Made by a program: the position numbers
Assembly (NCBI GenBank): GCA_964012805.1
Contig: CAXGUD010000002.1
Location: 192,604 to 256,603 of the forward strand
DNA: 64,000 nucleotides
Direction: 5' to 3'
From: an uncultured Bacteriovoracaceae bacterium
Lineage (GTDB): Bacteria; Bdellovibrionota; Bacteriovoracia; Bacteriovoracales; Bacteriovoracaceae
Part shown: in pieces, positions 54,001 to 57,000 of the stretch
Layout of the letters: the number at the start of each line of letters is the position of its first letter
Numbering within the stretch: position 1 is the first letter of the stretch

Positions 54001-57000
54001 AAATGTTCTTTTTTAGGTATTTGACTTATTTACAAGAGCAAACACTCATTTTTCCAGGTACGGTTGTCCACCATCCCCCCTGCCATTTGGCCTTTTTGCT
54101 CTTGCAAACCTTGGGGCATTTCTTTTGGGCATCTTTTTGATTCCAAATGGGCCCTGCGTTTACAGTAAATGGTTTCCTCGGTGGAGCGATCGTTCCTGTA
54201 GGATATGGCACAGAAACAGGAGGACGGTTTACTCCAGGTCTATTTGACATAGGCGGTCTCCCAGGTCTGAAGTTCGGAGGTATAGGTCTTGGAGGGTTCC
54301 TATTTGGAATCACTTTGTTTCCAACTCGAACAACTCCCTTTTTGCAATAGAGGTTTCTCATCCTTCTTTGCCTCTGCTTTTTATTTCGTGCCCGGCGGAT
54401 TCTTTTCTTTATCACGTCCTGACATTTGCTTCTCGCCATAGAGCAAGCAATTTTAGCGTTTTCGGCTTGAGCACTATAGGTACCTTTGTGGGCATTTTGC
54501 TTTCTGTGGAAGAGGCTCACTTCACAAAGTGGGTATATTTTATTTCGGTCTCCTTGAGTACAAAAATTTCTGGTTCCTCTTGTGACAAGATTACAATCCC
54601 TTCTCGCTGTTTGGCAGGCCAACTCTCTCGTGATCGCCTCCACTCTAAACCTTTCAATAAAGTCTCCATTTGGCCTGTACATGCTATAGATGCAATTAAA
54701 CTTTTTCTTTTTTCTCCTCTCTTCTTCAAGCCTTTTTAAGCGCTCTCTTTCTTCTCTTTCAAGTCTTTCCTTCAAGGCCTTTTTATCTGCTTCAATTTGC
54801 TTACGCCTTTCTTCCTTTCTTAGGGCCACCAATTCTTTGGTGTTTTTGACAAATTTTTGGGCAAGCATCATTTTCTTAACCGTCTTTTGGAATAATTTTA
54901 AAAGTTCTTTTCCAGACCTCTTGGGCCTAGGGGCCGGTTTTTTATCCGTTATCGATTGGTTATAAAGATCCTCTAACTCCCTCATCCCATTTTTAAAAAG
55001 AGGCATTTGCCTTATCCATAGAAAATCAGGTCTTTCATAAGTTAACCAGTTTCCACCGACAATTTTTCCATTATAATCAATGAAAAGTTCATAATTATAC
55101 CTCTTAGCTTTAAAAGCTTTTTTATTAATTTCTTTTTCCCAGGTTTTAGGGACTTCAGCAATATAAGTTAAAACAGTTTCCATCGTTATAATTTCAGAAA
55201 TATAAAACCCTTCAATATAATTATTATGAGTTCTTCTTCCCTTTATAACAGACTGATAACCGTAGGCCGCCTGATTCCAGACTTCCTCCCCTCTCGTGAC
55301 ATCAAGGATAAAGCCCATGCCACTTTTTCCAATAATATTTGAAATAACAACATGAAAACTGCCGGCGTTTGTATCACTGCAGGCCTCATCATTAAATGCC
55401 TTAAGATACTCCTCTTTTGATATCTCACCACTTGTCCACTTTTTATAAATACTCTTTAAACTTAAATTACAGCGGCTTCCTAAAAACTTAGTGGGTGACT
55501 TGGCAAACTCCATATGAATATCTAAAAGGGCCTTGATATCAGAGGAGCCGAAAGGAATTTCAACCCCTGTTTTTCCAATCGCTTTTATAGGCCCTGGGTT
55601 TTCATAAAGAATTGTGGCCGGGGCCCAATTATGGCATAAACCAAACCACTTTGGTATTTTATGGCCTGAAACATATTCCCGAGAACCCTTGACGGTTTTC
55701 AAAATTCCGGTCCTCTGCCTCTCCCATTTAGTTAAAGTCCAGTTTTTGTCCCCCATATAAAGGTCATATTTTTCAGCGGGTGAAAGGGTTCTTAAATCAA
55801 CTCCTTTCATATTGTTCATATCATAGAGGTTATAACCATAGCGGCCTGTATCTTTTTTATCTTTTGTAACGGGAAACCACCTATAAGTAATTCCTCCCAA
55901 ATAGGTACCCCAATAATCTCCACTCCACGGAGTTTTAGTCATCCTTCCCTGAAGAGGAAGTTGTAAAAATCCAGTTTCGTAATAGTTCCCTATCAAAGCG
56001 CCTGGATTATTGGCCTGATTCCAAAACCATTGGTTGGGAATGTTATCTGCATAAAGATTTTTCGTGAAAAGCAGTATAAATAAAGCTTTAAGTACGCTAG
56101 TCATTTTTTGAGTCACCTTGTCTCTCCTAAAATTTAGTTTAAACTAATTTTAGTTTATCTTTAAGGTGAAAGGAAGGTGATTATATACCAGAAGGGTATA
56201 TCTTTTTTGAACCGTCCTGCTCAACTTTTAGTCTAAGCTACTCACGGTAACTTAGCTCTAAATCCAAATACTTCTGGCCGGTCCTCAGTTTTTTTATGCT
56301 CTTCCAAATTTTTTGAACCAATAAAGGGTTCCTTTTATATAAAGCTTTTGAAAAGACTAGGTAATAGGATTTTTCTTTGATTGGTTCTTTTGATTTTATA
56401 ATTGATGCATACTTATTTTTATCTTTTTTAATTAAGTTATCAACGATGTCAGTAAAGCCTGCAAAACCAGAAACTCTTTGCCTTAAAAGCATTTCAAGTA
56501 AATTTTTAGACCCTTTAGCTGAATAGATATTAATTTTCATTTTTTTTAAATCGTCTGCAATTGAATAACCAGCAGAAACTCCAATTTTTGTTCCTCCTTT
56601 TAAATTTAAAAAAGACTTTCCATCCCATCCGAGACTACTTGATTTTAATTTATAAAAAGAATAACTAGAGTTGGCAATCCCCATCGTATCATCAGGGGAT
56701 TTCTCTTTCATGGGGTAATGACCGATTTCCATTCGACTTTTTTTAAAACTTGCACCTAAAACAGCATCCACCTTGTTTTTTTTAAGGCCATCAAGGCATC
56801 TTTTCCAGGGATAACGGGCGTATTTAAATTTAATATTCTCAAGCTTTAATTCTTCTTCAACCATTTTGAGTAACTCTATAGTCAAACCAGGTTTTTTTAA
56901 ATCGACTTCTTTATTTCCCAAATAATAAGGTGACCATGGTTTGTTTTCTAGAGCAATAGTTAATACTTCTCCATTAGCTAAAAAGGAAAAGAAAATACCA

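Follow-up and report, generated by a model that had tools for sequence, protein, structure and literature searches.

The only member of the PF16683 family to have been both characterized and solved is GP42 of Phytophthora sojae, a Ca2+-dependent transglutaminase of the cell wall (PDB 3TW5). In the literature consulted, the GP42 homologues of P. infestans are wall proteins that are required for wall stability, and the occurrence of GP42-type transglutaminases is described as confined to oomycetes and certain Vibrio, bacterial members being reported for the latter genus in PMC4915311. The ten bacterial paralogs that are the subject of this study resemble P. sojae GP42 in the fold of the whole core, a Trp four residues before the predicted catalytic Cys, an adjacent Cys-His pair, a VWNQ strand and export. 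They differ from it in belonging to a separate subfamily (support of the dividing branch, 100), in being scattered over one genome as ten copies, in the addition of basic stalks and of tips made up of 4-Cys, MVL or ankyrin units, and in an activity that is putative; there are also differences at two positions of the active-site region, described below.

Three further systems offer points of comparison. The GP42 homologues of Vibrio, reportedly described by Reiss et al. (2011), are likewise bacterial, exported and endowed with the CH motif, and a copy on a Vibrio owensii plasmid ends in a ricin-B domain; the Vibrio copies, however, fall in another clade, together with cable bacteria, Thiofilum and genomes of the class Oligoflexia, and have Ala at the position equivalent to Asp328 of GP42. 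The lectin MVL of Microcystis viridis (PDB 1ZHQ) shares with the gene g00446 described here a repeat that scores above the Pfam cut-off and contains the AGP(I/L)W and WxT motifs, but MVL is a two-domain homodimer with two repeats per chain, whereas g00446 has a single, Cys-containing repeat at the end of an enzyme. Finally, the prey-wall enzymes of Bdellovibrio (the DacB pair with its ankyrin protein) also combine exported enzymes and ankyrin repeats in a Bdellovibrionota genome, although with another fold and substrate class and with the ankyrin as a separate gene rather than fused as in one of our paralogs; the GP42 family, for its part, is not conserved across predators.

Architecture of g00446 and its paralogs

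The window, that is, the whole 64-kb stretch of DNA that was analysed, holds g00446 on the minus strand (54026..56116), an ORF of 696 aa with a GTG start, an upstream AGGAGA that resembles a ribosome-binding site and an in-frame ATG at aa 5 as an alternative start. Elsewhere in the window there are genes for a GH5 protein that also has a GH5_C domain, for a C-type-lectin fusion and for an RHS protein. As a whole g00446 would encode an exported GP42-fold enzyme followed by a stalk and a lectin tip, and a same-genus genome has an ortholog (85% identity) in which every one of these parts is retained. The predicted Sec-type signal peptide (aa 1-23, 56048..56116), read by eye, ends in L-Y-A. The catalytic core of the GP42/TGase_elicitor type (aa 32-388, 54953..56023) has a papain-like fold, as judged from the match of aa 43-370 to PF16683 (133 bits against a cut-off of 25; E 1e-38), the match to 3TW5 (E 2e-25) and the model of a paralog. 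Beyond the core come a Lys/Arg/Glu-rich stalk (aa 402-472, 54701..54913), predicted as a helix over residues 402-478, two copies of a 4-Cys module of ~50 aa (copy 1, 54551..54700; copy 2, 54335..54532, which is retained in same-genus orthologs), a Pro/Arg-rich linker that was read off the sequence where model confidence is low (54176..54319) and a single C-terminal MVL-type lectin repeat (54029..54166). The latter was identified at aa 660-695 by PF12151 (44.3 bits against a cut-off of 25) and by 1ZHQ (E 2e-10), which, with 3TW5, made up the matches at E <0.001 in a search of PDB sequences. Just past the stop codon lies a hairpin (53973..53999) with an 11-pair stem and a T run, which by its match to the consensus may be an intrinsic terminator.

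The gene is under purifying selection, with a dN/dS relative to the same-genus ortholog of 0.08 for the whole gene and 0.02 for the MVL repeat, values that come from a pairwise count in which synonymous sites are close to saturated. Over the 4 kb of DNA that was compared, the gene alone matches, and its flanks do not. Two marine metatranscriptome contigs span 54085-54470 and 54504-54783 at 97-98% identity, but they carry neither strand nor level and possibly stem from DNA, so that they were not taken as a sign of expression.

A PF16683 search of the genome gave 17 matches in 11 ORFs, ten of which scored 114-157 bits, with identities of 32-45% between g00446 and the other paralogs. The distant eleventh ORF, at 24.9 bits, has Cys-Asp in place of Cys-His and is tied to the PF16683 family by profile comparison with a probability of 94%. 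All ten paralogs have a hydrophobic N-terminal signal by eye, nine of them Sec-type and one lipoprotein-like, and the claim of ten exported paralogs in the preliminary description of this locus is thus upheld, as are the MVL fusion in g00446 and the ankyrin repeats in another paralog, which a domain scan detected again. The genes share a common build here of core, basic stalk and optional binding tip. Seven of the ten have tails whose net charge ranges from +18 to +84, and in five of these seven Lys makes up 21-29% of the tail, compared with 10% in 1949 long ORFs of the genome. The remaining three comprise two tail-less paralogs and one with an acidic tail that is incomplete because the gene runs off the end of its contig. 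The first part of the g00446 stalk is common to only four paralogs, given that a profile of the linker matched four ORFs at E<=5e-16 and the next best at E 0.9. The tandem 4-Cys pair occurs in g00446 and two other paralogs in a scan of the 8967 ORFs of the genome, among which there was no other convincing match, and the module had no Pfam match and no look-alike in the Atlas. A complex prediction for the ankyrin tail and its own core, which addressed the idea of a built-in inhibitor, returned a score of 0.00 and gives no verdict either way.

The fusion to MVL is confined to g00446 and its same-genus ortholog among the proteins examined; since the ortholog carries the identical fusion, an assembly artefact was ruled out as its origin. 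MVL was present in one of 26 PF16683-family ORFs from relatives, and a search with the g00446 tail among shorter proteins gave five matches, four of which were MVL proteins. The genome encodes a second MVL repeat in a small secreted protein in which no further domain was recognised. Among 73 long homologues picked for scanning, the C-terminal additions were ankyrin (10), CUB (2), ricin-B (1) and MVL (1, the g00446 protein itself), and ricin-B also forms the tail of the V. owensii plasmid copy; three lectin-tipped cases were seen altogether. The ligand of MVL is given in PMC3407925 as the Man-Man-GlcNAc-GlcNAc (Man3GlcNAc2) core of eukaryote-type N-glycans. The idea that the enzymes are aimed at prey envelopes, with the lectin as a guide to prey glycans, found no support in either the occurrence of the fusion or this ligand.

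Fold and predicted active site

The full-length model of g00446 had a pLDDT of 65 overall and mostly <50 past residue 477, and owing to these low values it was left out of the fold search. The model of a tail-less paralog (pLDDT 85.5), in which a helix begins at the Cys, superimposed on 3TW5 with a Z of 29.7 and an rmsd of 2.5 A over 289 residues (Foldseek E 2e-19). The next matches after GP42 were mostly papain-like proteases at Z <=6.4, a level that may reflect merely a shared core.

The residues that had been listed as invariant, W157, G159, C161, H162, W164, A165, P166, H255 and D272 (g00446 numbering), were indeed found in ten of ten paralogs. To place them in a wider context, an alignment of 326 homologues was used, 91 of which came from loci and 235 from protein searches. 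W157, C161 and D193 were present in 326/326, H162 in 300/326, H255 in 322/326, D272 in 320/325, N281 in 321/325 and E321 in 291/323. The predicted catalytic pair, Cys161-His162 with the invariant Trp157 before it, lies at 55631..55636 and matches the CH motif of GP42. As set out in PMC10318531, the GP42 site consists of a His directly after the Cys, partnered either by an Asn in core strand 2 or by an Asp in a helix outside the core, and the canonical protease His position is occupied by Asn. Conserved as they both are, H255 and D272 are not that site, and the Cys-His-Asp arrangement proposed earlier therefore had to be abandoned. Because it lies where a core strand begins, N281 probably corresponds to the catalytically important strand-2 Asn; it falls within the segment equivalent to Pep-13 (55244..55282, by alignment), which contains W280-N281.

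Two candidates for the helix Asp emerged from the alignment, both on one helix, namely D193, which is equivalent to GP42 D318 and invariant, and E203, which is equivalent to GP42 D328. We take Asp328 to be the catalytic acid of GP42. At its equivalent, the ten paralogs have His in seven cases, Gln in one and Asp/Glu in two, Asp is present in four of four oomycete-type domains, and Ala in nearly all Vibrio-type rows. As for Pep-13, its Trp and Pro are both needed for activity, as Brunner reportedly found in 2002. Both N281 and the Pep-13 Trp are kept in all ten paralogs; the Pro is kept in only two, having been lost in the other eight (g00446 has Ala), and in 231 of the 326 homologues.

Taken at the level of conservation, the paralogs are very likely active cysteine enzymes. 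Since an acid occupies the Asp328-equivalent position in merely two of the ten, their activity as transglutaminases is unproven, and the cross-linking chemistry of GP42 is not transferable to them unchecked. Both calcium dependence and transglutaminase activity would be assumptions carried over from GP42 by analogy.

Phylogeny and distribution

In a quick tree of 111 rows, the ten paralogs fell within one 24-row clade of Bacteriovoracales-type records (support 96), which was nested among sequences of Oligoflexales and Silvanigrellales. They are a lineage-specific expansion, and both same-genus genomes also have many matches to the family. In this tree and in a second one g00446 and three other paralogs formed a long-branched subclade (support 99 in the second). 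By an ad hoc lipobox heuristic, lipoprotein signals were detected in 33 of 47 copies labelled Oligoflexales or Silvanigrellales and in 0 of 15 labelled Bacteriovoracales. With a lipobox in most of the former copies, it is the lipid-anchored form that is widespread, and free export in the Bacteriovoracales-type lineage was probably derived from it. At 79 related loci, generic response regulators and transporters were the only neighbour families to recur in unrelated genomes, and partner, substrate or immunity genes did not recur outside close kin; the neighbours of the genome's own paralogs recur in close kin only, and there is no substrate gene adjoining any of the ten.

The PF16683 family was found in 152 of 300 sampled genomes of the phylum and in 39 of 72 of the taxonomic family to which the genome itself belongs, counts that include non-independent kin, many incomplete genomes and mostly uncultured carriers, and that very distant copies could escape. 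The former value reproduces the prevalence of about half of the Bdellovibrionota that had been reported (423/850). A profile search returned 3,461 clusters at 50% identity (E<=0.001). Prevalence was high in the Oligoflexia, the class of Oligoflexus tunisiensis, in which 109 of 116 genomes have the family, often with many matches (nine family ORFs in O. tunisiensis and four in a Silvanigrella-labelled genome). Elsewhere, carriers include Ca. Electrothrix and Ca. Electronema (cable bacteria), Thiofilum flexile, Thiolinea and Chitinimonas. The search of plasmids gave one match, the V. owensii fusion of GP42 and ricin-B, and that of phages gave none to the PF16683 family. The family is centred on Oligoflexia and Bdellovibrionota, and its enrichment in Bdellovibrionota in the broad sense is one part of the preliminary description that stands, along with an exported, lineage-expanded set of GP42-fold proteins with modular tails.

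Predator specificity and a direction towards prey, the other part of that overall reading, are not supported. The genus with a record labelled Halobacteriovorax marinus has the family in two of six genomes and that with a record of Bacteriovorax sp. DB6_IX in four of 13, each carrier having one or two ORFs. Within family f9, 56 of 131 genomes have it, and its largest genus, g81, which is presumably Bdellovibrio, gave three weak matches in 40 genomes. Davis et al. (2024) regard a family as predation-specific if it is broadly present in obligate predators and absent from their non-predatory relatives; here its presence was patchy (2/6, 4/13, 39/72 and 56/131), and it was found in the Oligoflexia as well as in Electrothrix, Electronema and Thiofilum. 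It is important to note how the word non-predatory is to be read for these relatives. In PMC11656739 Silvanigrella and Fluviispira are counted as non-predatory, although the paper cautions that predation by them may have gone undiscovered, and PMC7308576 records that O. tunisiensis was grown on R2A and that the Oligoflexia include a pathogen of Daphnia. Chitinases are carried by Oligoflexia, and an attack on chitinous eukaryotes has been proposed for them. We further take the Oligoflexia-labelled strain FD111 to be an alga killer. In view of the pathogen, the proposed chitinous prey and FD111, non-predatory therefore means not shown to eat bacteria. Since known predators have the family less often than the non-predatory relatives do, its members probably serve as surface enzymes of a general kind and not as weapons of predation, and with this distribution the main argument for a role in predation falls away.

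Literature searches, which reached mainly open-access papers and did not extend to the PMC11656739 supplements, found no publication on the PF16683 family in Bdellovibrionota or Oligoflexia. The paralogs represent a variant subfamily, so far undescribed, within a known enzyme family, with an expansion in one lineage, a new small module (the 4-Cys module) and a rare lectin fusion, and they are part of a large bacterial GP42 family, centred on Oligoflexia and Bdellovibrionota, that extends beyond the described range of oomycetes and Vibrio.

Proposed role and its alternatives

We tentatively favour the reading that the ten genes encode exported papain-fold Cys-His acyl-transfer enzymes that act at the producer's own surface, matrix or attachment site. 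After Sec export, Cys161 would attack the side-chain amide of a glutamine in an extracellular protein, and the resulting acyl-enzyme would be resolved by an amine, which gives a cross-link, or by water, which gives deamidation. In the wider group the enzyme would mostly be a lipoprotein tethered to its producer, and in the Bacteriovoracales-type lineage the lipid anchor would mostly have been replaced by polycationic stalks and by tips (4-Cys modules, MVL, ankyrin) that could keep the enzyme attached to anionic or glycosylated surfaces. The enzyme would there modify or stitch the coat, matrix or attachment site of its own cell, and would not be a dedicated tool for the invasion of bacterial prey. 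Supporting this reading are the wall role of the oomycete enzymes, the sole solved relative among them, together with the lipoprotein signals in 33 of 47 copies, the prevalence in Oligoflexia, the cable bacteria and Thiofilum among the carriers, the conservation of W157, C161, D193 and N281 among the homologues, the basic tails and the purifying selection. Against it are the acid that is mostly missing at the Asp328 position, the retention of the Pep-13 proline in only two paralogs and the lack of an adjoining substrate gene. Further points against it are that secreted hydrolases just as typically have lectin, ricin-B and CUB additions and occur as scattered orphan copies, 16 trypsin-family matches being present in the genome, and that a lectin for the N-glycan core would, by analogy with MVL, point outward, to foreign material. 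Our literature searches found no activity data for bacterial members of the family.

A close rival, somewhat less likely, is that the proteins are secreted scavenging cysteine peptidases or amidases whose Cys-His core would hydrolyse extracellular protein on particles or detritus, docked there by the basic stalk and the lectin tip. It would account for the orphan genes without conserved neighbours, the ankyrin, CUB, ricin-B and MVL additions on long homologues (with ricin-B on the Vibrio plasmid copy), the absence of the Asp328-equivalent acid from most bacterial members, and a genome with trypsin-family matches and no histidinol dehydrogenase found; the papain-like proteases that follow GP42 in the fold search agree with it too, unless they share only the core. 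Homology to the sole characterised member, a transglutaminase, nevertheless extends across the whole core, and Asn sits where a protease would have its canonical His (PMC10318531). Rather improbable is an enzyme directed at eukaryotes, with glycoproteins of algae, protists or invertebrate tissue as substrates and MVL or ricin-B as the address. The N-glycan ligand of MVL (PMC3407925), the Daphnia pathogen (PMC7308576) and chitinases of the Oligoflexia, the ricin-B fusion of V. owensii, and the GH5/GH5_C, C-type-lectin and RHS genes of the same window all agree with such a target. However, lectin tips are rare, at three cases altogether, the genome has no GH18 match and two C-type lectin matches, and an MVL-type specificity of the single g00446 repeat would be assumed by analogy. 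To our knowledge, moreover, the sulfur-oxidising carriers have no known eukaryote target.

Improbable, too, is the toolkit for predation that had been suggested earlier, which would cross-link or deamidate envelope proteins of bacterial prey. In its favour, the genome is placed in the family of Halobacteriovorax- and Bacteriovorax-labelled records and has predator-like traits (nine flagellin matches and, again, no histidinol dehydrogenase), the lipid anchor appears to have been exchanged for free export in this lineage, the ankyrin fusions are reminiscent of the self-protection ankyrins of Bdellovibrio, and about half of the genomes of the phylum carry the family. It is opposed by the low prevalence where predation is documented and the high prevalence in Oligoflexia, by a genome with a single DacB gene and a single YkuD match, in an organism whose own predation is merely plausible, and by the known ligand of MVL, which is not a typical surface sugar of Gram-negative bacteria. 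It is very improbable that most of the proteins serve as non-catalytic adhesins or scaffolds and keep the GP42 domain only as a fold; the long branches in the four-paralog subclade of g00446 and the long basic tails would fit such a function, but the Cys is kept in every one of the 326 homologues and the CH pair in all ten paralogs.

Finally, we speculate on self-gluing adhesin-enzymes, an improbable variant, in which the lectin tip or polycationic stalk would dock on a foreign surface (an alga, a particle or a prey cell) and the core, with a changed Cys-His-His/Asn site, would covalently link the Lys-rich stalk to glutamines in that surface or in the coat of the producing cell, the ten paralogs being ten variants of the address. 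If this were the case, the oomycete GP42/Pep-13 enzymes would descend from the pool of Bdellovibrionota and Oligoflexia and not from Vibrio. The paralogs could yield new protein-ligating enzymes, and the ten natural variants in one genome, which differ in the third active-site position and in their tips, make it directly testable whether they are cross-linkers or proteases, and on which substrate.

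GP42 likeness and origin of the oomycete-type domains

When matched to the Phytophthora sojae transglutaminase GP42, a lipoprotein of the Oligoflexia class (fetched locus L138:2865-5078) scored 152.6 bits, higher than the Vibrio owensii copy (104) and the copies of the source genome (87-92). A quick tree places the oomycete-type domains on a long branch, outside the clade of Vibrio-type sequences (support 99), and this analysis therefore lends no support to a Vibrio donor for them.

Further family members in the source genome

The distant eleventh member of the GP42 family (554 aa; minus strand of contig C6, L026:7713-9377) has a signal peptide and carries Cys-Asp where the paralogs have Cys-His. 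A small secreted ankyrin protein adjoins it on the same strand. Two paralogs on contig C15 are neighbouring and convergent (L021:7504-10629), one with a tail and the other without.

Other lectin-bearing proteins

Contig C6 also encodes a small secreted protein (118544-119203; L133) in which an N-terminal Microcystis viridis lectin (MVL) repeat is joined through a Pro/Arg linker to a C-terminal domain that lacks annotation. The Vibrio owensii copy, annotated only as a lectin protein, is a fusion of a GP42-type domain to a ricin-B lectin (L135:7635-9470) and resides on a mobilizable plasmid (NZ_CP025798.1). A minus-strand gene of the window (57779-59494) encodes a membrane acyltransferase (Acyl_transf_3) to whose C-terminus a C-type lectin domain is fused.

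Additional genes of the window

A 7TM-DISM sensor fused to CheA-like Hpt and HATPase domains is encoded at 49943-53944 (plus strand), and related 7TM-DISM kinases were identified at 13674-15695 and adjoining the GP42-family paralog on contig C21. The minus-strand gene at 47562-49766 encodes GH5 and GH5_C domains, a layout like that of endoglycoceramidases, preceded by Cys-rich repeats of the C-Y-x-P-C type for which there was no Pfam match. The secreted 2927-aa RHS protein (37641-46424, minus strand) contains SpvB, FG-GAP and TcdB-midN-like regions, and its C-terminus carries no annotation; contigs of one marine metatranscriptome covered the segment 44412-45823 of its gene.
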